Shown: positions 11,030 to 55,680, counted from the first letter of the stretch. The stretch is 64,000 nt of DNA from Patescibacteria group bacterium (GCA_041649715.1 JBAZMP010000002.1:4964-68963); one strand, 5' to 3'. Numbers and translations: made by a program. The notes: generated from the sequence alone by a model not told the origin.

Positions 11030-13882
11030 TTATTTAACAGTAACCGTAAGGTAATCTGTTTGTGTTTTATCACCTTTTTTATTCTCTAGGATTAGAAAAA
11101 GCCTGTAAACACCGGCCGGCGCTAAAGGCCAGGTCGCGCTGATACTACCGGATGCGGGACTAGAAAGCGAAGAGATATTCGTGGTCAGGCCATTCTTGTC
11201 TTGATAAGCAAAAGTGATTTTTTTTATTCCCTTTGGATCCGAAGCATACCCCTTGATGGTAAAGGGAAAAGAGGAGGCGGCAATTTCCGCGCCCTGACTG
11301 GGGGAGGTAAAATATAAGCTCGTGTCTGAGCTGGTAGGCAGAAAATTAATAGTGATGCTTGTTCGATTTACGTTGCCGACCGCGTCGGTCACCACCGCGT
11401 CCAGGTCATGATAGCCTTTAGCCAGCAAGGAAGCGCTGTAGGAAAAGGAAAATGGGCTGTGCGTGTTTTCGCTGGCCAGAATATCGTCGATATAATAACT
11501 AACCTTAGTGATGTCTTGAGGGCCGGAAACCTGAACGGTGAATTTAAACACGGACTGGCTGATTGTTTCGCTGTCTTTGGGGGCGGTAAAGGAAATTTGA
11601 GGCAGGTTTGCCTCGCTTCTTAGGTCGCAAGACTCTAAGGCAGGCGCCGTTTCAATGTAGCCGTGATCTCGCGCCCATTTTTGAACGGGCGTCTCCCAGT
11701 TGGCGTATTGGGGATCGCTGGCCGGGTTATCCGGCAGGGGGCCGCGCGGGTCATCCCTTTTTACGTAATAAAGTATGTTGTGGACGGCCTTCACGGTTTT
11801 CTCGGTGATAAATTCCGCGGGCCAATCAGCCAGACAGGTGGCCGGTATTTGTTTGCCGGTGATTGAGTCGACTTTGATCGGAAGATCCCCTGTAAGCTGT
11901 CCCTTAAGAATAGGTTTATCGGTTTGAATTTCCCTGAAGTCCTTGAAGTACTCGACCGGTTTTCCTTCTAAAGCTCTTCTCATAAAGCCATTCCAGATCG
12001 GCGCCGCCACGACCGAACCGTCTGCTCCGCGGCTCATTTCCGAGTTGTCATTATTGCCCACCCAGACGCCGGTCGCGATCTGTGGCGTATAACCCAAAGT
12101 CCAGGCGTCGCGGTAATCATCAGTGGTGCCCGTCTTGGCCCCCACCGGCCGGCCGCCTAGAGTAAGATAATTGCTGGCCCCAAAAATATAGGCGCGTGAA
12201 TCATTGTCGGAAAGAACCTTGCTCATTTGTCGGGCGATCTCCACGTCTAGGACACGGTTTGCTTTTCCTGGCTCATGCTTTTCCAGTATTTTGCCGTTAG
12301 CATCCTCAATCCTTAAAATTGAAGTATAACTCATTTTTTCCCCTTCACGGGCGAAAACGGCAAAAGCATTGGTGTGTTCCAAGAGGGTTACCTCCCCACC
12401 GCCTAAAACCAAAGAAAGGCCAAAGCGGCTGCGGTCGGCAAAAGTCGTATAGCCGAAGCTTTCGGCCAGATTTAAAACATTATCAAGACCGGCGAGATAC
12501 AGGGTTTTAACCGCCGGTATGTTAAGCGATCCTTGAAGAGCTTTGCGCATTGTGACCGGCCCATGTTCGGTCTGGTCATAATTTTTTGGGATATAATCCC
12601 TGGAGTCGGTTTTAAAAACAGTGGTCAGGTCAAAGAGGATCGTCTCGGGGGTGTAGCCGATTTTAAAGGCCGTGGCATAGACGACAGGCTTAAAGGAGGA
12701 GCCGGGCTGACGGGGTCTTAAGGTGACGTTTACATTGCCGTCGATATCTTTATTGAAATAATCTCGCGAGCCGACCATCGCCAAAATCTCACCGGTTTTA
12801 ACGTCGAGGGAGACCAGGGCGGCGTTAGAGGCGCCATATTTTTCAAATTTCGCCGTTCCTTTTTCAATTTCTTCCTCGGCGATTTTTTGAAGATCGTAAT
12901 CCAGAGTGGTGATCACTTTGTAGCCGCCCTGCTCTATTTCTTTGTCTCCGTATTTTTCCGCCAGCAGATCTTTGATGTACATGACGAAATGCGGGGCCAA
13001 AATATTTTCTCGCCTAGGCTTAATATCTTTCAGGATATCGATGTTTTTCGCTTCGTCTGCCTGGGTCTGGGTGATATAGTTCTGTTGGACCATCAAGTCG
13101 ATGATCATTTTTTGCCGCGCCACTAAAGCATCCGTGTGGGTGCCATAAGGCGAATAATAGGTCGGAGCCTGAGGGATGGCGGCCAGGAGAGTGCTTTCGG
13201 CCAAGCTTAAATCTTTCGCATTTTTGCCGAAAAAACTCATTGAGGTGGCTTCAATGCCATAGAGAGTGGAACCGTAGGGAATTTCATTGAAATACATTTT
13301 CAATATTTCGTCCTTGGAAAATTTCCTTTCGATCTGGTAGGCCAGGACGATTTCCTTGAATTTTCTGGTCCAGCTTTTCTCGGTGGTCAAGATGGCGTTT
13401 TTGACGAACTGCTGGGTGATCGTGGAGGCGCCCTGCGCTTTTTTGCGCTGGAGGACGTCGATGACCAGAGCTTTAAAAATGCGCGGCAGGGAAAAACCTT
13501 TGTGTTGGTAGAAATTTTTATCCTCGACCGCAATGGTGGCGTTAATGGCCGTCGTAGCGATATCGGTTAAATTCACGGCCGTCCGGTTCTGCTCGCCGTG
13601 AATCTCATAAAGCAGAGTTTTTTCATCACGGGCAAAAATTTTCGTGCTTTGGGCGATCGAGCGCTCGATCAGCTTATTGGGGTCAGGCAGGTCGCGGGAG
13701 AACCAGGCGAAAGCGCCCAGCCCCACAATACCGCCGCCTAAAATTAAAATAGCCAGGATCGGCAGCCAGCGGCTGGTCAAGTGTTCCCACCATTCTTTCC
13801 TCTTTTTTACTTTTTTTAAATGCCAATTCTCCCGCCAGGAGCGGTCAAAACGAAAGCTGGGTTTTAACTGGGGGATCGGCAT
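11030..13882 (-). CDS. Class A penicillin-binding protein (PBP1A: transglycosylase + transpeptidase) with a C-terminal extension of about 250 aa.
   Basis: GT51 motifs (QQFVKNA…, EIVLAYQIERK…KDEILKMYFNEIPYG), transpeptidase SSFKP and KTGTT motifs, and an N-terminal membrane anchor. Confidence 0.85.
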   Translation of the reverse strand: MPIPQLKPSFRFDRSWRENWHLKKVKKRKEWWEHLTSRWLPILAILILGGGIVGLGAFAWFSRDLPDPNKLIERSIAQSTKIFARDEKTLLYEIHGEQNRTAVNLTDIATTAINATIAVEDKNFYQHKGFSLPRIFKALVIDVLQRKKAQGASTITQQFVKNAILTTEKSWTRKFKEIVLAYQIERKFSKDEILKMYFNEIPYGSTLYGIEATSMSFFGKNAKDLSLAESTLLAAIPQAPTYYSPYGTHTDALVARQKMIIDLMVQQNYITQTQADEAKNIDILKDIKPRRENILAPHFVMYIKDLLAEKYGDKEIEQGGYKVITTLDYDLQKIAEEEIEKGTAKFEKYGASNAALVSLDVKTGEILAMVGSRDYFNKDIDGNVNVTLRPRQPGSSFKPVVYATAFKIGYTPETILFDLTTVFKTDSRDYIPKNYDQTEHGPVTMRKALQGSLNIPAVKTLYLAGLDNVLNLAESFGYTTFADRSRFGLSLVLGGGEVTLLEHTNAFAVFAREGEKMSYTSILRIEDANGKILEKHEPGKANRVLDVEIARQMSKVLSDNDSRAYIFGASNYLTLGGRPVGAKTGTTDDYRDAWTLGYTPQIATGVWVGNNDNSEMSRGADGSVVAAPIWNGFMRRALEGKPVEYFKDFREIQTDKPILKGQLTGDLPIKVDSITGKQIPATCLADWPAEFITEKTVKAVHNILYYVKRDDPRGPLPDNPASDPQYANWETPVQKWARDHGYIETAPALESCDLRSEANLPQISFTAPKDSETISQSVFKFTVQVSGPQDITKVSYYIDDILASENTHSPFSFSYSASLLAKGYHDLDAVVTDAVGNVNRTSITINFLPTSSDTSLYFTSPSQGAEIAASSFPFTIKGYASDPKGIKKITFAYQDKNGLTTNISSLSSPASGSISATWPLAPAGVYRLFLILENKKGDKTQTDYLTVTVK

Positions 13883-48265: not shown

Positions 48266-49036
48266 TTATTTTTTCAATTTATAGTAGCTTTTTGGATCAA
48301 GATAATCCGTTAGGAAATTACACATAGTAGTATTTGGCTCGGCGTCTTTGCAGGGGCAGGGGGATTCTTCCCGGATTTTTTTGTCAATGATCATTTCTTC
48401 TAAGTCCGCGCCGGCGGCTTCGTATTCCGTCAGGACTTGGTCCGTAAAATGCGGGAAGATGGAATCAATATTTTCATTGAAATCTTCATTTCTCGCTTTG
48501 AGCGAAATATCAAAATCATTCCCCCGCTGGCTGAATACGGCGTAGCCTAAGAGTTCTCCGGCTTTAATTTGATAGTCAGTCACCATATCTTCCAGATTAT
48601 TAAGGTGGAATATGGTTAGTTGCCAGTTTTTTGCTTGATTCGGGACCAATGTAAAGTGGTTGCCGCGTTCGGAAGACTGTATTTCAGTAATTTTTCCGTC
48701 AAATGGGGCGAAGACTTTTACTTTATCATTGCTTGGACTGTCGATTTCCTGCGGCACGAAATAATGTTTCAGGCTGCTGGAGGCCTCCGGTTCGCCGAAC
48801 AGATTGGTGGCGCCATACCAGTGGCCGGCACAGGAGCGGAAGCGGGAGATGGCTAGAATCTGGGTAAGATCGACCGGATTAGCGGTAATGAATTTTTCGC
48901 TAGCCATTTCCGCCGGGTTCATATTTGGTCTGATTTTTTGTTTTAAGAAAAAGCCGATTATCGGTATGGCCAGAATTACTAATAAAATCAGCCACCAGAA
49001 TTTTTTGAAGAATGATTTTTTGGGTTTTGCGTCCAT
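48266..49036 (-). CDS. Exported paralog-array member 1; conserved leader MDAKPKKSFFKKFWWLILL; degenerate LytM/M23-like beta domain possible.
   Basis: Start set at the conserved MDxxPKK. The C-terminal domain is similar to that of 51279..52037. Confidence 0.5.
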   Translation of the reverse strand: MDAKPKKSFFKKFWWLILLVILAIPIIGFFLKQKIRPNMNPAEMASEKFITANPVDLTQILAISRFRSCAGHWYGATNLFGEPEASSSLKHYFVPQEIDSPSNDKVKVFAPFDGKITEIQSSERGNHFTLVPNQAKNWQLTIFHLNNLEDMVTDYQIKAGELLGYAVFSQRGNDFDISLKARNEDFNENIDSIFPHFTDQVLTEYEAAGADLEEMIIDKKIREESPCPCKDAEPNTTMCNFLTDYLDPKSYYKLKK

Positions 49037-49040
49037 ATGT

Positions 49041-50312
49041 TTATCGTTCATAGGTAATTGGATTTTGGAAAGATTCGGACGCACCGCAGCGTCCTAATTG
49101 TTGTTCAATCTGAATATGCGTATCATCAATCAGCTGAAGGAGGATCTTTTCCTGGCCGTTGGTGCGGTTATCATCGTAGCAGTAGACTTTTCCGTCGGCG
49201 GTCACCTCGGAATATTCCCGGTCGATTAAGCCGGCATGTTTCGGGATAAACCAGAAACCCGTCACGTTTGAGACGGTGAATTTCGCGTATTGGGTCTCAA
49301 CATTGTCGTGAATTAAGATCATCGCGTTATTATTGTCAGTGACATTTTTTGTCGTCACCGGATTTTTAAACCAGTTGCCGGCCGCTGTACCGGGGATATC
49401 ATACATGATTTTTCCGCAGACCGGCTCGGTGGTTTTTGCGACAAATACCTGGGTATCGCTTCCCTGTGACCTCATGTCGCCGAACAAAGCAGAGTATTTG
49501 GCTTTCAGCTCGGGAGTATAATAATCTGTCAGGCAGTAAGCATGATTGGTAAAGGTGTAGTACCGGTCCGGATTGGCGAAGCCTAAGGCCGGTTTGTTAT
49601 AATCATACAGCCCGTAATCAACATGCATATTTTTTGGTCCCAATTTGCCCATATAGCCGATAATCTCGCCGGCTTTCAGCTGAATCCTGTCAAAATTCGG
49701 GTGGCAGGTGTAATACCAGCTTTGTTCATCTTCTTCGGTTTTTTCCTGACTGCAATTCAAGTTTTCTTCGTGAACAGCCGCGGCCAGCTTAGGCGAAAGT
49801 TTCGTGTAATGAACCATGGAAAGGTTAATGCCGCGGCAGGGGACCATATTAATCTGATAATCGTTGCCTATCAATGAATCATCGCTTTTGTAGTATTTTT
49901 GCTTAATTTCTACCCAGATCAGGGTCATGTCGGAGGGAGCGTAGACCGGAACTTCGGCGGTATATTCCCCGGCATAAGGATATATGTGGTCAACCGGTAC
50001 GACATGGCCGGACTCGTTTGAATTGCCCAAAGGGATGATGCGCAAGGGTAAGCCTTCGTCCATGAACGGCACGGTGAATATTTGCGAGGTATCGGCCGGG
50101 CAGGCCGGTAGGTCCGAAGCCAAGCTTAAGGCTTGGAGATCATCACTTTGAATTTGACTGGTATTAGTTTCTTCCGGTGTATTTTGTTTTACGTTTTTGT
50201 CTGACTCAGTTTTTTTGCAGGCGGAAATAAAAAGGACCAGACAGAAAACCGCGGCGATAATGAATATTCTTTTAATCATAGACTTTTTTGGTTGAATGTT
50301 TTTTAATCCCAT
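49041..50312 (-). CDS. Array member 2: a lipoprotein variant (lipobox LFISAC) carrying the family C-terminal domain.
   Basis: C-terminal …EYSEVTADGKVYCYDD…LLQLIDDTHIQIEQQLGRCGASESFQNPITYER. Confidence 0.5.
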   Translation of the reverse strand: MGLKNIQPKKSMIKRIFIIAAVFCLVLFISACKKTESDKNVKQNTPEETNTSQIQSDDLQALSLASDLPACPADTSQIFTVPFMDEGLPLRIIPLGNSNESGHVVPVDHIYPYAGEYTAEVPVYAPSDMTLIWVEIKQKYYKSDDSLIGNDYQINMVPCRGINLSMVHYTKLSPKLAAAVHEENLNCSQEKTEEDEQSWYYTCHPNFDRIQLKAGEIIGYMGKLGPKNMHVDYGLYDYNKPALGFANPDRYYTFTNHAYCLTDYYTPELKAKYSALFGDMRSQGSDTQVFVAKTTEPVCGKIMYDIPGTAAGNWFKNPVTTKNVTDNNNAMILIHDNVETQYAKFTVSNVTGFWFIPKHAGLIDREYSEVTADGKVYCYDDNRTNGQEKILLQLIDDTHIQIEQQLGRCGASESFQNPITYER

Positions 50313-50313
50313 A

Positions 50314-51276
50314 TTATTTATTTTCCTCTGTTTCGGGTTTATCATCTTTTACTTTCGGCTCCTCGGCAACTTCATAAGTGTTTTCGCCCAATTTATATCT
50401 AATAAGTGACCCGTCTATAAATCCTTCCGTTTCCCGGCCCAAAAGAAATTCAATGGCTTCGTGGTGATGCTTAACGCTTCCGGTTTCAGTCGAACACCGG
50501 AAAGAAATCTCATCGCCGAGCTTGAATCCCAATTCCGAAAGAGGTCGGGCTGATAGGGTGTAATCATATCCCAGACCGCCAGCGAGCATCCCATTCATTG
50601 AAGTAATCAGAAAGGCATCCTCGCCGCTGGCGTCTTTGCCGTTTCTTGTGATAAATGACATTACGTTAGCGACCGGGTCGATCTGTGCGTATTCTCCGTT
50701 TTCAGAAACAGTATAGTAACCGATGCCATCGTGAGCGGCATCTACCTTGTCTTGGCCGTTTTTATCTTTATAAAATATTTCGTCGAGCTTCCCCCCGTGG
50801 CTGATAATATAGTCGCCATCATATGAAACATGATCGGTCGGCAGTTTACCCCAATATTCAAATTTCAAGTACATATATTGGTTGTCAGCGCCGACGGACA
50901 AGCTTTTTAAATCTGTAAATGGCATCGGATAGGGAGAGGTGTTGTTGCCGCGGTACGTGTCAGTTGTCCGATTATGCGTGTAGATAAAAAAGTCATCTTC
51001 GGGGTCCTCAATTTTTATACCGGAAGCAAAAGCCGCATCAGCCGCCGTTAGCTGAGCCGCTGAAAACGGCAATGTTCTGCCAGTTTTTTTCGGATCACCA
51101 GACCCGTCGACAGGCGTGTTGTTATTTATGACCTTATAGAGATTTTTTTCCTTGTCCGAATCGCCGTTTTTTTTATCCCGGAAAGTTGCCCCCATGAACA
51201 CAACCACAATAATAATGATGATTGAAATCAGCCACCAGAATTTTTTGAAGAACGATTTTTTGGGTTGGGTGTCCAT
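50314..51276 (-). CDS. Array member 3: leader MDTQPKKSFFKKFWWLISII with a distinct C-terminal domain.
   Basis: Conserved leader. Only 1 nt separates it from the flanking genes. Confidence 0.5.
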   Translation of the reverse strand: MDTQPKKSFFKKFWWLISIIIIIVVVFMGATFRDKKNGDSDKEKNLYKVINNNTPVDGSGDPKKTGRTLPFSAAQLTAADAAFASGIKIEDPEDDFFIYTHNRTTDTYRGNNTSPYPMPFTDLKSLSVGADNQYMYLKFEYWGKLPTDHVSYDGDYIISHGGKLDEIFYKDKNGQDKVDAAHDGIGYYTVSENGEYAQIDPVANVMSFITRNGKDASGEDAFLITSMNGMLAGGLGYDYTLSARPLSELGFKLGDEISFRCSTETGSVKHHHEAIEFLLGRETEGFIDGSLIRYKLGENTYEVAEEPKVKDDKPETEENK

Positions 51277-51278
51277 AA

Positions 51279-52037
51279 TTATCTAAATTTATCTTCATAA
51301 CCTCCCGAGCAGATTTCCGGGGCATTGGCTTTCATCTCCGGCGAATTTGTTTCCGCCCAGATCTTCTCGATTAATATTTTTGAGGCGCTGTCGAAATAGA
51401 TCATGGGGCAAAGCCTCGGCTCGACCGCTGCGATAGACAGATCTTTTTGCGCGACATCATAATAGCCGAATTGCCAATGAATGTTCTTGTAATCTTGTCC
51501 GTTTTTGCCTTTTCCTTCGTTATTCGGCCAGCCGATGAAATCGCCGATTTTTACCTTGTCGCCGACTTTCAGATTGGGATTGGTGGCGTCAAGCCCGCAA
51601 TAATCCACGCCCCAGCCGTCGTCGGTCTTGGTCACGACCATGACCGTCGCGTTTGAAACTGTGTCTCTGATATCGACGATCGCGGCGTCCAGGGAGGCGA
51701 TGATTCTTATCTCTTTGTTCGTATTCCACTGAAAATCCAAGCCTGGATGGCCGAGGGCGGCATCGGCGTGGAATATCGTCTCGCCCATGGGGATCAGGGC
51801 GTCGGGGGCGTCTGAAGCGGCGAAGGGCAAGGACAGGACCGGTGTAGACGTCGGGCGGACGATTTGTATCTCCGGCGGTTCACCGGTTTCGTTCTCAGCG
51901 GCGGCTTTATTCTCGTTGTCTAGCCGACTGGCCCGGTGGCCGGTAATCCAGCCGTAGACAAAACCGACGATGAGCACAATCAAAATCAGGCCGAGCCACC
52001 AGAATCTTTTGATATATGATTTTTTTTCATTGTTCAT
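51279..52037 (-). CDS. Array member 4: leader MNNEKKSYIKRFWWLGLIL with a LytM/M23-like domain (HPGLDF).
   Basis: HxxxD-type motif, and a GDKVKIGDFIGW beta-strand typical of M23-like folds; the second His motif is degenerate. Confidence 0.45.
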   Translation of the reverse strand: MNNEKKSYIKRFWWLGLILIVLIVGFVYGWITGHRASRLDNENKAAAENETGEPPEIQIVRPTSTPVLSLPFAASDAPDALIPMGETIFHADAALGHPGLDFQWNTNKEIRIIASLDAAIVDIRDTVSNATVMVVTKTDDGWGVDYCGLDATNPNLKVGDKVKIGDFIGWPNNEGKGKNGQDYKNIHWQFGYYDVAQKDLSIAAVEPRLCPMIYFDSASKILIEKIWAETNSPEMKANAPEICSGGYEDKFR

Positions 52038-52040
52038 AAT

Positions 52041-53324
52041 TTATCTATCTAATGTCACAGGTTGGTTAAATTGATCCGTCGTTTTACAGGCGCCTCGTTG
52101 GTATTCAGCTTTAAGGTGATTGTTATCAATCAGCTGGATTAGCATTTTGCCAGCAGGATCGCCAACGCGATATATTGTGAGATTATAGCAGTAAACTTGA
52201 CCGTCCGTGCTAACCTCGCTTGGTTCACGATTGATTGTGCCGGAATGTGCCGGCGAGAAACTGAATATTTTCGGACCAGTAACTGTGCCAGCAGAAGAAA
52301 TCATGCCCTGAGTGTGATCAATGTCGCCATGGATGATGGCCAATTCTTCCGTATCACCGATATACCAAGTACCCTGAATGCTACCGATAACCTCCTGATG
52401 CTGGGTACCGCAAAGCGGTTCGCCGGTTCTTTTTGTGAATAATCCGTAATAATCATCGTACAAGCCGAATAGGTTATAATATTTATTTTTCAACTCACCT
52501 GTATACATATCAAAAAGGCAGATAGCATATTTCATATTTCCATTGTGGGTGTAGAATTTTAATTCAGGATTAGTAATCGCCGAGGACAGCTGACGATAAT
52601 CATGCGCCCAATCTTCAAAGGTTCCGCAGCGTCCGGGTTCTTGTTTCACAATACCAATGAATTCTCCAGCCTTGATGGAAATATTCGTTTCGACCCGGCA
52701 GTATTTACGGGCGCCTTCTTTGCCTAGTTTTGTAATTCCTTCGGTGCATGCTTTTGGATCTTTCAGCGCATCAGCAATCACTTGTTCGATTGACTCTGAT
52801 ATCGTTTCATAAATACTGAAATCTAGTACGACATTCTTGCACACAGTGAATGTCAGATTGGTACCGATTAATTCATATGTTCCGGTATTTTTAAGATCTA
52901 TATATTCCCGGTTGACCCCCGTAATCCATCCGTCCGCTGGAGCATAGCCACGGACTGGGTCGCCGCAGGGTATGTAATAGGAGTTATGGTCGGTCGCTCC
53001 CGTATGCCCCGGCGGGCTGACCCAGCCTAGGGGGCCAATGGCCCCAATTTCTTCCGGGTCAATAAAGGGGGCAGTTAAAATGCCTGCCAGATCATTTGGG
53101 CATTCGGGGAAATTACCTCCCTTGTCAGAGTCTTTATCAAAATCCTTTTTTTCATTGGTATTAATATCTTGTTGGTTCTGTTCAAAAGGTTTTTTATTTT
53201 TTTCATTAGGTTCGTCTTTGCCTGATAATTGCGACACTATAAGACATCCCCCAATAAGAATTATAATTATTAATAGGATCCACCAGAATCTTTTGAAGGA
53301 TGATTTTTTTGATTGGGCGTCCAT
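52041..53324 (-). CDS. Array member 5: leader MDAQSKKSSFKRFWWILLII plus the family C-terminal domain.
   Basis: C-terminal REPSEVSTDGQVYCYN…LIQLIDNNHLKAEYQRGACKTTDQFNQPVTLDR. Confidence 0.5.
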   Translation of the reverse strand: MDAQSKKSSFKRFWWILLIIIILIGGCLIVSQLSGKDEPNEKNKKPFEQNQQDINTNEKKDFDKDSDKGGNFPECPNDLAGILTAPFIDPEEIGAIGPLGWVSPPGHTGATDHNSYYIPCGDPVRGYAPADGWITGVNREYIDLKNTGTYELIGTNLTFTVCKNVVLDFSIYETISESIEQVIADALKDPKACTEGITKLGKEGARKYCRVETNISIKAGEFIGIVKQEPGRCGTFEDWAHDYRQLSSAITNPELKFYTHNGNMKYAICLFDMYTGELKNKYYNLFGLYDDYYGLFTKRTGEPLCGTQHQEVIGSIQGTWYIGDTEELAIIHGDIDHTQGMISSAGTVTGPKIFSFSPAHSGTINREPSEVSTDGQVYCYNLTIYRVGDPAGKMLIQLIDNNHLKAEYQRGACKTTDQFNQPVTLDR

Positions 53325-53334
53325 AATTGATTAT

Positions 53335-54646
53335 TTATCTTTGATACTCAAATGGGTTTATAAATGATTCATCAGAACTACACGACCCGTCCTGATGCTC
53401 TACTTTTAGCCGATGATCATTAATTAGTTGAACTAATATTTTCCCCGCCATCTTTTCTCTGCTCAGCTGTTTTTCTGCGGAATAATCATCCATAAAACAG
53501 TAAATATTGTCATCGGCTGTTATTTCACTTGGTTCTCTGTTAATTATTCCTGAATGTTTCGGGAAGAACATAACAACCGAATAATCTCCCGTGATAGATT
53601 TATCCATGGAAAATATGCCAATAGACGGGTCCATATTGTAGTGTACGATAGCCAGCGCTTTTGTTTGGTATACTTCGGGATTATCGCCCCACCACACTCC
53701 TTGGGCAGTACCGGGAATATCTTGGATTATCTCTCCGCAAACAGGTTCTTTAGTCCTTGCCATAAAATCCAGCGGGGTAATTACGGATTTCCCGTTTATC
53801 GTCTCCTCCCTTTGCGACAGATATACCCCAAATTTTGAAAAATACTGATCCTTCAGATCCCCTTTGTATAGATCAAACAGGCACATCGCACGGGAATATC
53901 GTTGATCTTTGGCATAATCCCAATTAATATCCGTTCTTTGCGGGGTGTTGTAGTTTGCGGCCCATACTTCAAAGAAGAAGCCATCATCTTTTTTACGCGT
54001 ATATCCAAGCAGCTCCCCGGAAGTAACTTTTAGATTTGTCTCATAAATACAACTCCCTTCCGTTCTCCCATGGCCTTCTTTATTAATGTCGTAGGTGCAG
54101 GAACCTTCAATGTTTTTTATCTCATTTTGCAGCCTTTGAGATATCTCGGTATAAGTCGTCAGATCCAAAACCAATCCTTTGCAAATAAGAAGAGATATTG
54201 AATATCCGGTGGGAATGTACTCTCCGGTCTCCGATTTCGCCGACTCTTCTGTCATTGATAATTTTAGCATTGGCCGGCGCGTAAAGAGGAATCTGGCCTT
54301 CAGCGAGAGACTGAAAATAGATGTGATCAATAGGGATGACATGACCCGGAGGATTTATATTTCCTAAAGGCGTAAGAAACAAAATTGCTTCCGGCGGCAT
54401 AAAAGGATAATCTAATATACCAGAAAGATCAGCCGGACAATCAATTACATCTGACGGGTATCTTATATCTGTTGGTTGTTCGTTATTGTTTTGATTATTT
54501 TCTGATAAGTTAACTGCGTCATTTAAAGAGGTTTCGTCTTTTTGGCTATTGCTGTTTAACGCGAATACTATAATAACCACGAAAGCGACTATTATTAATA
54601 ATCCCATCCACCAGAATCTTTTGAAAAATGATTTTTTTTGATCCAT
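53335..54646 (-). pseudogene. Array member 6, interrupted by a 1-nt frameshift near 54220-54260.
   Basis: Leader MDQKKSFFKRFWWMGLL in the 54122..54646 frame; family C-terminal domain in the 53335..54342 frame. The total span is not a multiple of three. Confidence 0.5.
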
Positions 54647-54653
54647 ATTATTT

Positions 54654-55586
54654 TTATTTGTAAGCGGCGTAATAAATACCCTTGGCGTGCTGGCCGTAAT
54701 ACATAAACCAGGCGCCGTTGATTTTTTCAAGAGTGGGATCGCAGGGCGGATTGGGAACGAATTTAAGATTGGCGTTTTCATTATTGCTCCAGTCAAAAAC
54801 CGGGGCGGAAAAAGCGCCGCTTGAGTAAACCGTGCGATAGATACCGGCATAGCTCCAGAAATAAACTCTTAATTCGCCGTTGTCCCATTTTACCCACTCC
54901 GCGCCGTCGGCCAGGCCATAAAGAGTCTCATTCCTTGAATCAAAGGCAAGGCCCTTCTTTTCCCAGGCCAGGCCGTCGCGGGAAGAGGCCCAGAAATAGA
55001 GCTGAGTGGTTTGGTTAGGCACTTTTTCCGAGGTTTCATAAGGCTCGTTGATTGTTCCGCGGTAAACCATAATATAGGTTTTGTCCGGCAGCAAATAAGT
55101 GCTTTGAGCGCCGACACTTTCCAGGTTAAAACCCGGTTCGGATTTATCAATCCTGACGCCGGGTTCATCGGTCCAATTCAGTCCGTCTTCGGAAACCGCG
55201 CTTTTAATCACTTGGTCGTTCTGAAAATAGGCGCGAAAACGGCCGTCAGGCAATTTTACCACATCAAAAAATACCGCCCAGGTTTTTCTTACCCCCTCTT
55301 CTTTGGTCCAGGTAATCCCGTCCGAAGAGACAGAGGAGTAAATCTGGCCGGCAAAATCCGGGGTTTCCGGTTCAGCCGCGTAATAAAGTCGGTACTGGCT
55401 GTTGCCCAAGTCCAGGATTTCCGCGTCGGCGTACTGGCCCGAGACGACGACGCCTTGTTCTTGCCAGGCAGGAGTAGTATTAGTATTTGTATTGGTGACC
55501 CTGGTATTGTCAGCCGTCTTTTTACAGGCGGAAACAAAAAATACCAGACAGATCAGGCTTAAGAGGATGATAAGTTTTTTGGGCAT
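54654..55586 (-). CDS. Lipoprotein with BNR/Asp-box repeats (beta-propeller sialidase/glycosidase-like).
   Basis: Lipobox FVSAC. Asp-box repeats SSDGITW, SEDGLNW and SRDGLAW. Confidence 0.55.
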   Translation of the reverse strand: MPKKLIILLSLICLVFFVSACKKTADNTRVTNTNTNTTPAWQEQGVVVSGQYADAEILDLGNSQYRLYYAAEPETPDFAGQIYSSVSSDGITWTKEEGVRKTWAVFFDVVKLPDGRFRAYFQNDQVIKSAVSEDGLNWTDEPGVRIDKSEPGFNLESVGAQSTYLLPDKTYIMVYRGTINEPYETSEKVPNQTTQLYFWASSRDGLAWEKKGLAFDSRNETLYGLADGAEWVKWDNGELRVYFWSYAGIYRTVYSSGAFSAPVFDWSNNENANLKFVPNPPCDPTLEKINGAWFMYYGQHAKGIYYAAYK

Positions 55587-55643
55587 AGATTATGGTATTT
55601 AAACAATAAATTATGCTTCTTTTATTCTACCATTTTTAGCCAT

Positions 55644-55672
55644 TAAAAAAAGAGCCGACACGCGGCCGGCTC
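55644..55672 (-). terminator. Rho-independent terminator after 55681..56007.
   Basis: Stem GAGCCG / CGGCTC (55652-55657 / 55667-55672), followed by a U-run on the minus strand (plus-strand A-run 55644-55651). Confidence 0.45.
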
Positions 55673-55680
55673 AGGGCGAT

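Follow-up and report, generated by a model that had tools for sequence, protein, structure and literature searches.

A shared Lys/aromatic leader on a seven-gene array of exported proteins from a Patescibacteria group bacterium: conservation of protein and identity of DNA

Introduction

Little is known about how the Patescibacteria (candidate phyla radiation, CPR) build and decorate their envelopes or attach to hosts, and most of their exported proteins carry no annotation. We analyzed a stretch of 64,000 nucleotides (nt) from the metagenome-assembled genome of a Patescibacteria group bacterium (GCA_041649715.1, JBAZMP010000002.1:4964-68963), referred to here at its full length as the window. 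A minus-strand gene array at 48266-55586 encodes proteins that begin with nearly the same Lys/aromatic leader and then diverge. A preliminary description of this DNA had noted that the first ~45 nt of these genes are also nearly identical as DNA and had proposed gene conversion among paralogues, a nucleotide-level function, or a dedicated sorting or variation system for surface proteins. The question raised by this locus is why genes with such different bodies should share a leader so closely, both as protein and as DNA. On balance, we consider the probable answer to be an operon of membrane-tethered wall proteins with a conserved signal-anchor leader, the DNA identity of which would come from low-degeneracy residues, codon bias near the start, and local gene conversion.

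Results

Five of the seven array genes carry the leader

The array comprises seven genes arranged head to tail, named G7 to G1 in transcription order (Table 1), with intergenic spacers of 7, 10, 3, 2, 1, and 4 nt in that order. The span and the 1- to 10-nt spacers had been described correctly, but the original count of eight genes had treated the two halves of G6 (open reading frames [ORFs] 54122-54850 and 53335-54342) as separate genes. Aligning the DNA with that of an intact orthologue (P0003 of locus L001; 439 residues, 64% identical to the N part of G6 and 84% to its C part) revealed a 2-nt deletion in G6 between 54256 and 54255. The frameshift lies outside any homopolymer tract (the poly-A tracts are 6 to 8 nt long), and G6 is either a true pseudogene or the result of an assembly error. 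Because the only room for a promoter is the ~65 nt that follow the hairpin of the gene upstream of G7, the array is best read as a single operon, with its promoter presumably within 55587-55680.

G1, G3, G4, G5, and G6 start with M-D-x-x-x-KKSFFK[KR]FWW and continue into a hydrophobic helix of ~19 residues rich in Ile, Leu, and Val; the pattern that covers all five leaders is KKS[FSY][FI]K[KR]FWW. A six-frame search of all 64 kb placed the motif in frame at the start of these five genes and of no other, which bears out the shared leader originally described. A 30-nt consensus core (AAAAAATCATTCTTCAAAAGATTCTGGTGG) occurred five times in the window at ≤3 mismatches and never in 100 shuffles, and a repeat search recovered the same family of leader cores. 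The other exported proteins of the window have N-termini unrelated to the leader. The window's own class A penicillin-binding protein (PBP; 11030-13882, minus strand) has Transgly, Transpeptidase, and two Big_7 domains, and its juxtamembrane segment, KKRKEWWEHLTSRWLPILAIL, also contains Trp but differs from the leader.

G2 and G7 lack the FWW leader. The n-region of G2 reads QPKKSMIKRIF and looks like a decayed FWW leader. G2 and G7 have signal peptides whose DNA is identical at 32 of 37 nt (50209-50245, FCLVLFISACKKT, and 55516-55552, ICLVFFVSACKKT) in front of bodies that differ, and G2 looks like a mosaic of the FWW and lipoprotein leader types.

The leader has the properties of a membrane anchor

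All five FWW leaders have a net charge of +3 or +4 in the N flank and of -2 to +2 in the C flank, a distribution that agrees with the positive-inside rule for an N-in/C-out signal anchor. Their best 19-residue windows have a mean Kyte-Doolittle hydropathy of 2.3 to 2.9, and the hydrophobic segment has the length of a membrane-spanning helix (about 18 to 25 residues). In the AlphaFold2 (AF2) model of G5, a continuous helix occupies residues 10-33 and a disordered polar linker occupies residues 35-67. Inspection of the five leader sequences found no lipobox; the lipobox [LVI][ASTVI][GAS]C is present in G2 (ISAC, residue 29) and in G7 (VSAC, residue 18). We infer that the FWW leader is an uncleaved type II (N-in/C-out) signal anchor. 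That basic residues form the positive-inside part of an anchor and that aromatic residues such as FWW form a belt at the membrane interface are established ideas for membrane proteins. A type IV prepilin-like leader was also considered and was rejected, because the sequence lacks both Gly at -1 and Glu at +5.

The bodies include a divergent LytM-fold family

The confident G5 model (predicted local distance difference test [pLDDT] score, 86.5; predicted template modeling [pTM] score, 0.78) shows the leader with its transmembrane helix, the linker, a LytM/M23-fold domain with the LytM beta-barrel, and a beta-rich C-terminal domain with conserved Cys. The C-terminal domain has no family assignment and no Pfam family. 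Cys residues are invariant in the G5 family, which fits an extracytoplasmic location. At the level of Pfam, the relation to M23 peptidases is faint: G4 matched PF01551 at an E value of 2.5e-6 (28.0 bits, just under the cutoff of 28.7) and had weak matches to LytM structures in the PDB, G1 matched M23 below the cutoff (E value = 1.1e-3, 19.5 bits), G2, G5, and G6 had no Pfam M23 match, and no array member reached the gathering score. Profile comparison by hhalign aligned G1 (98.5%, E value = 2.6e-15) and G4 (96.2%) with the G5-family profile over the leader and the LytM region. Because G1 and G4 are tied in this way to the G5/G2/G6 family, all five proteins appear to be ancient paralogues of one leader-linker-LytM ancestor, and they seem to make up a LytM/M23-like family (G5, G2, and G6, with G1 and G4 as distant members) that Pfam and NCBIfam do not cover. 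The three unrelated C-terminal domain types of the preliminary description are therefore not upheld: G1, G4, and G5/G2/G6 are distant homologues, and G3 is a further type that it had not listed.

None of the LytM-fold members keeps the canonical HxH. G4 has HPGLD, with HWQ where HxH is expected; GH(x4)DH is conserved in the G5 family, with PFEIW at the place of HLHFE; and G1 has neither HxxxD nor HxH. Judged from these residues, the proteins may be atypical enzymes or noncatalytic LytM factors of the EnvC/NlpD/SpoIIQ kind.

G3 had no match in Pfam or NCBIfam, and its AF2 model was poor (pLDDT, 51.5) and too weak for a fold search. Its family has seven members, all detectable relatives being metagenomic; the leader is present in five of the six homologues, whereas the sixth (P0042) begins downstream of it. 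G7, which had been described as a BNR propeller, is exported as a lipoprotein instead of behind an FWW leader; it contains three Asp-box-like motifs (SSDGITW, SEDGLNW, and SRDGLAW, at residues 87, 132, and 202) and matched no Pfam family at E ≤ 1, BNR included, giving only faint glycoside-hydrolase matches. A 665-residue metagenomic protein (P0055, locus L128 6750-8747) carries an FWW leader with G3-like and G5-like domains fused behind it, suggesting a functional link between the G3 and G5 families.

Leader DNA is more alike than its amino acids and codon usage predict

The mean pairwise nt identity of the leader core across the five genes was 0.91. To obtain an expectation, synonymous codons were resampled for the same amino acids from genome-wide, cluster-body, and start-proximal usage tables; this gave 0.76 to 0.77 ± 0.025, and none of 20,000 simulations reached 0.91. 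The claim of near-identical leader DNA thus holds beyond what amino acid conservation and codon bias account for. It is most striking in G1 and G3, which differ at 1 of 40 nt (2 of 39 in an anchored comparison). The bodies behave otherwise: at identical residues of G2, G5, and G6, the same codon was used 53, 53, and 52 times in the three pairs (48.5, 55.3, and 56.3 expected), i.e., their synonymous sites are saturated. Of 10 degenerate codons in the leader, G5 and G6 have 9 in common (4.6 expected).

We compared codons across 28 leaders from 16 sources, 15 of them CPR loci and the other the window. Where residues are identical, the same codon was used in a fraction of 0.84 for window pairs (63/75), 0.60 within other genomes, and 0.51 to 0.53 between genomes, and only 1 of 2,000 label permutations reached the observed difference. 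The excess identity is specific to the window genome and strongest for G1 and G3, which points to gene conversion. Comparison with orthologues led in the same direction. Over the 39 nt, G1 differs from G3 at 2 positions and from its own orthologue (L049) at 8; G3 differs from its orthologues in L092 and L094, whose bodies are 74% identical to its own, at 14 and 10; and G4 differs from its paralogues at 7 to 12 and from its orthologues at 20 and 13. As protein, too, the G3 leader MDTQPKKSFFKKFWWLI agrees with that of G1 (MDAKPKKSFFKKFWWLI) and not with those of the G3 orthologues, which read MGQQKKSFLRTFWW and MDQRKSFLKRFWW. Since divergence after duplication predicts the reverse pattern, we infer gene conversion or a recent transfer of the 5' segment, a proposal of the preliminary description that now has moderate support.

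Between genomes, the codons of the leader change. The leader Arg is encoded by AGA, CGT, CGC, CGG, or AGG depending on the genome, and the Phe before WW is encoded by TTC or TTT. Because the leader is conserved across genomes while its codons change, it is selection on the protein that keeps it. The Ser at position -6 is nearly always TCA in the 28 CPR leaders, though TCA makes up ~12% of Ser codons here, and codons that replace it often retain A at the third position (CCA, ACA, GTA, and TTA).

The leader is rare, CPR centered, and found on several body families

Orthologues of G1, G3, G4, G5, and G6 in other Patescibacteria keep the leader. It is present in 12 of 31 G5-family homologues; because the other 19 use plain MKK-hydrophobic leaders, the motif is dispensable for the G5 family as such. 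In the CPR loci that we collected, the leader precedes five multimember body families and four single-member body types, among them a PQQ propeller family and a DUF922 protein, and two or three leader genes lie side by side in six loci (L002, L045, L052, L058, L094, and L096). Among 1.84 billion representatives, a profile of the five leaders found only 20 clusters with E ≤ 1e-3, so that the leader is rare outside the array. The bodies of these clusters belong to a small set, namely, the G1, G3, and G5 families, other M23-like proteins, a BNR/Sortilin propeller protein (P0049), a protein with thrombospondin-like repeats, and the G3-like/G5-like fusion P0055. A leader-only profile searched against 5.8e9 clusters gave 4 matches at E ≤ 10, in a database where a 45-residue profile cannot reach significance, and a metagenome pattern scan gave about 9 true leaders among 33 matches. 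In 51 leaders, a set partly selected by the motif itself, the eight residues besides FWW carry 2.4 to 3.5 bits per position. In two metagenomic Thr/Asn-rich proteins (P0054 and P0058), the anchor is C-terminal instead of N-terminal and consists of FFRRFWW or LERWWW and an Ile-rich helix. No leader model was found in Pfam or NCBIfam when the array ORFs were scanned, and no relevant publication came out of a literature search on the motif and on signal peptides of CPR bacteria.

A back-translated scan for the decapeptide in 185,579 species genomes gave 89 matches. Actinomycetota proteins account for 31 of them (contigs L004-L088), with KKGFFRRFWWV directly before a membrane helix and high conservation across many metagenome-assembled genomes. 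Two of these were checked: Pfam identifies the one in L024 as a class A PBP (Transgly and Transpeptidase domains), and the one in L013 has transglycosylase motifs by sequence. Five further matches are Brachybacterium or Corynebacterium proteins in which the decapeptide precedes a mid-protein membrane helix, and one is an Oscillospiraceae protein. Seven are N-terminal leaders like those of the window, four in Patescibacteria or Berkelbacteria records and three in records titled "bacterium" or, once, Gammaproteobacteria; the remaining matches are short and out of frame. The position directly before the membrane helix in Actinomycetota fits a juxtamembrane role. Its occurrence ahead of the membrane helix in Actinomycetota class A PBPs makes the decapeptide a recurrent juxtamembrane sequence of bitopic wall enzymes and not a CPR invention. 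The leader had been called novel; in this light, it is not wholly so.

A targeting signal is the strongest alternative

This distribution bears on a second explanation, in which KKSFFKRFWW, by analogy with YSIRK, would be a sequence-specific signal read by a partner on the cytoplasmic face or in the membrane, sending a wall-active set of proteins to one place (septum, pole, or host-contact zone) or assembling them into one complex. We regard this as possible but rather unlikely. The information content of the motif speaks for it, as do its conservation where bodies are only ~35% identical, its presence on many body types (BNR propeller included), the clustering of motif-bearing genes in six loci, its rarity among representatives and its absence from the other exported proteins of the window, and the identical motif on another class of wall enzyme, the Actinomycetota PBP1. 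Against it, none of the genes adjoining the array (DUF5655, Vut_1, DUF6512, and Cyt-b5) is a candidate partner, many G5-family members do with a plain leader, G2 has replaced the leader by a lipobox, and the cytoplasmic tail has just ~12 residues. No sortase-like, protease, or insertase gene was found among the array neighbors, and the dedicated sorting system once proposed finds no support in the locus.

A more elaborate form of this idea, which we think improbable, makes the motif a juxtamembrane address label that would gather a wall-remodeling set (LytM-fold proteins, the G3 family, and PQQ/BNR propellers) at the septum or host-contact zone. Its recurrence in Actinomycetota PBPs would then reflect either a targeting code common to peptidoglycan enzymes or the imitation, by an epibiont, of an anchor of its host.

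A nucleotide-level signal and a variation system fare worse

Of the 43 gene starts in the window, almost none has a Shine-Dalgarno sequence, so that the absence of such sites, once held to be special to the array, is shared by nearly every gene of the window. The regions upstream of the starts are A/T rich. In codons 2 to 8 of the other genes, A occupies the third position at a frequency of 0.33 and G at 0.11, compared with 0.20 and 0.22, respectively, in later codons; the choice of AAA, TCA, and AGA in the leaders agrees in part with this general bias. In such a genome the conserved 5' segment could be an unstructured, A-rich enhancer of translation initiation or coupling for genes that start 1 to 10 nt past the previous stop codon without a Shine-Dalgarno site. 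The leader codons AAA, TCA, and AGA would suit this role, as would the frequent TCA for Ser and the third-position A of its substitutes, and the seven start regions folded with slightly less structure than shuffles (z = +0.3 to +0.7). These z scores are, however, not significant, the core Arg and Phe codons vary freely between genomes, TTC is preferred in the window leaders contrary to the A/T trend, simulation with 5'-end codon usage still gave 0.77 against the 0.91 observed, and the other genes of the window are translated without the segment. We therefore hold an enhancer to be quite unlikely; because the Arg and Phe codons differ between genomes, the nucleotide-level function first suggested is not supported as a universal signal.

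Programmed variation, in which the 5' segments would be recombination handles for swapping bodies behind one expressed leader or for switching genes on and off, is very unlikely: five direct repeats of ~40 nt spaced 0.8 to 2.2 kb apart, the near-identical leader on the different bodies of G1 and G3, the differing numbers of leader-type genes in related genomes (one in L049, two in L001, and seven in the window), and the broken G6 as a possible by-product all speak for it, but every member has its own start codon and full-length frame within one operon and none is a silent cassette, the array region holds only short and imperfect inverted repeats and no tandem repeats, no recombinase was found among the neighbors, the poly-A tracts are short and the G6 frameshift is not within one, and synonymous sites are saturated between the bodies, which are old paralogues. 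The leader repeats all run in one direction, and recombination between such direct repeats deletes or duplicates genes and gives no switch; it could explain the gene counts of one, two, and seven. Phase variation through the A6 to A8 tracts was likewise considered and rejected, the sole frameshift (G6) lying elsewhere.

Array features and surroundings

The positions of the genes and leader cores are listed in Table 1. G5 is 100% identical to a database protein (WC528_03430) of a Patescibacteria group bacterium. The genes adjoining the array comprise, besides those named above, one unannotated protein. At the corresponding spot in L049 and L001, an SRPBCC (Polyketide_cyc2) gene lies directly upstream, and a DUF5655 zinc-ribbon gene follows the spot in L049 and the window. 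Scans of the window with Rfam and for tRNA gave no match.

Table 1. Genes, leader cores, and upstream region of the array; leader cores are from the scan at ≤3 mismatches
Feature	Position	Strand	Description
Region 5' of G7	55587..55680	-	Intergenic; contains terminator-like hairpin (55672-55652) of the preceding gene
G7	54654..55586	-	Lipoprotein encoded at the head of the operon; signal MPKKLIILLSLICLVFFVSAC with lipobox VSAC; no FWW leader
G6	53335..54646	-	G5-family member, leader MDQKKSFFKRFWW; split into two ORFs by 2-nt deletion
G6 leader core	54608..54637	-	KKSFFKRFWW
G5	52041..53324	-	427 residues; leader MDAQSKKSSFKRFWW; member of G5/G2/G6 family
G5 leader core	53280..53309	-	KKSSFKRFWW
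G4	51279..52037	-	252 residues; leader MNNEKKSYIKRFWW, then M23-like domain
G4 leader core	51996..52025	-	KKSYIKRFWW
G3	50314..51276	-	320 residues; leader MDTQPKKSFFKKFWW, then beta-rich body of no assigned fold
G3 leader core	51232..51261	-	KKSFFKKFWW; inside the 39-nt stretch that differs from G1 at 2 nt
G2	49041..50312	-	G5-family paralogue with lipoprotein signal, lipobox ISAC
G1	48266..49036	-	256 residues; leader MDAKPKKSFFKKFWW, then degenerate LytM-like domain
G1 leader core	48992..49021	-	KKSFFKKFWW

Discussion

We return to the explanation that we prefer, an operon of membrane-tethered wall proteins that share a conserved signal-anchor leader. In this explanation, one operon of a Patescibacteria (CPR) bacterium would yield seven extracytoplasmic, membrane-tethered proteins, five held by an uncleaved N-in/C-out signal anchor and two (G2 and G7) by a lipoprotein signal. 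The anchor would consist of a short basic tail, KK..K[KR], on the positive-inside side, an aromatic FWW belt, and the ~19-residue Ile/Leu/Val helix, after which a polar disordered linker of 30 to 40 residues would lead to the globular domain. The LytM/M23-fold bodies of G1, G2, G4, G5, and G6, devoid of HxH, probably act on peptidoglycan, by binding or cleaving it, or control wall hydrolases in the manner of EnvC, NlpD, and SpoIIQ. Selection on its protein sequence would maintain the leader itself, and the identity of its DNA may have three sources: the low degeneracy of K, F, and W; the A-rich, G-poor bias of codons 2 to 8 in a genome without Shine-Dalgarno sites; and gene conversion or exchange of 5' segments between tandem paralogues, clearest for G1 and G3.

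Several points weigh against this explanation. Conservation of the motif goes far beyond the needs of an ordinary signal anchor, and its confinement to these families, when other exported proteins and even the genome's own class A PBP differ, hints at sequence-specific recognition, for which an anchor with a purely biophysical role does not account. The lack of cleavage is judged solely from the length of the helix and the absence of a lipobox. The case for gene conversion draws on about 40 nt per gene, and for the G1/G3 pair alone, codon usage gives a P value of about 0.002, uncorrected for the 10 pairs. The near-universal TCA at the leader Ser is not fully explained by conversion or by a general 5' bias. 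Finally, LytM domains without HxH are of uncertain enzymatic activity.

The locus defines a leader that marks a small, CPR-centered set of colocated exoproteins, as well as a LytM-fold family outside the coverage of Pfam and NCBIfam, and it offers a worked example in which concerted evolution is confined to ~40 coding nt. Should a partner prove to recognize the motif, the motif would represent a new sorting code and a simple handle for predicting the CPR surface proteome. If there is no partner, the leader would serve as an annotation rule and as a caution that 5' identity can stem from low degeneracy, start-proximal bias, and conversion.

Known systems resemble the array in different respects. 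The bodies recall SpoIIQ, EnvC, NlpD, and DipM, which are membrane-anchored degenerate LytM proteins and are 10 to 15% identical to the array bodies. In contrast to these, the G5 family has GH(x4)DH, one residue longer than HxxxD, and an extra C-terminal beta domain, and no gene for a partner amidase or a SpoIIIAH-like protein was seen here.

The preliminary description had likened the leader to the YSIRK-G/S and KxYKxGKxW signal peptides. These accompany LPXTG or serine-rich proteins, KxYKxGKxW together with the accessory Sec system. Like the FWW leader, they are conserved N-terminal export motifs in front of differing bodies. The parallel stands as an analogy only: none of the eight ORFs matched a YSIRK or KxYKxGKxW model of NCBIfam at E ≤ 1, the FWW motif is different, its hydrophobic segment is of membrane-spanning length, no linked export genes were seen, and the FWW leader is judged to be uncleaved whereas the other two are cleaved.

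For the DNA pattern, the nearest parallels are the Vlp/Vsp proteins of Mycoplasma and the Erp/Mlp proteins of Borrelia, in which recombination is credited for the likeness of leader-encoding 5' segments among tandem or dispersed paralogues with divergent bodies. There, as in the array, 5' leader DNA is kept similar among divergent paralogues. In those systems the promoter and 5' untranslated region are also kept and phase or size variation occurs, whereas the array shares ~40 coding nt within one operon and has no switching element.

The closest match to the leader itself is in the Actinomycetota class A PBPs. Their motif follows a cytoplasmic tail of 25 to 145 residues, compared with 5 to 6 residues after the initiator Met in the array, and it belongs to one orthologous family, whereas here it is found on several; unlike them, the CPR genome's own PBP1 has another anchor. 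Nevertheless, the Actinomycetota PBPs show the same pattern, KKx[FY][FILV]xxFWW before a single membrane helix and then an extracytoplasmic wall-active domain, and they share with the array proteins the combination of a basic tail and an aromatic interface.

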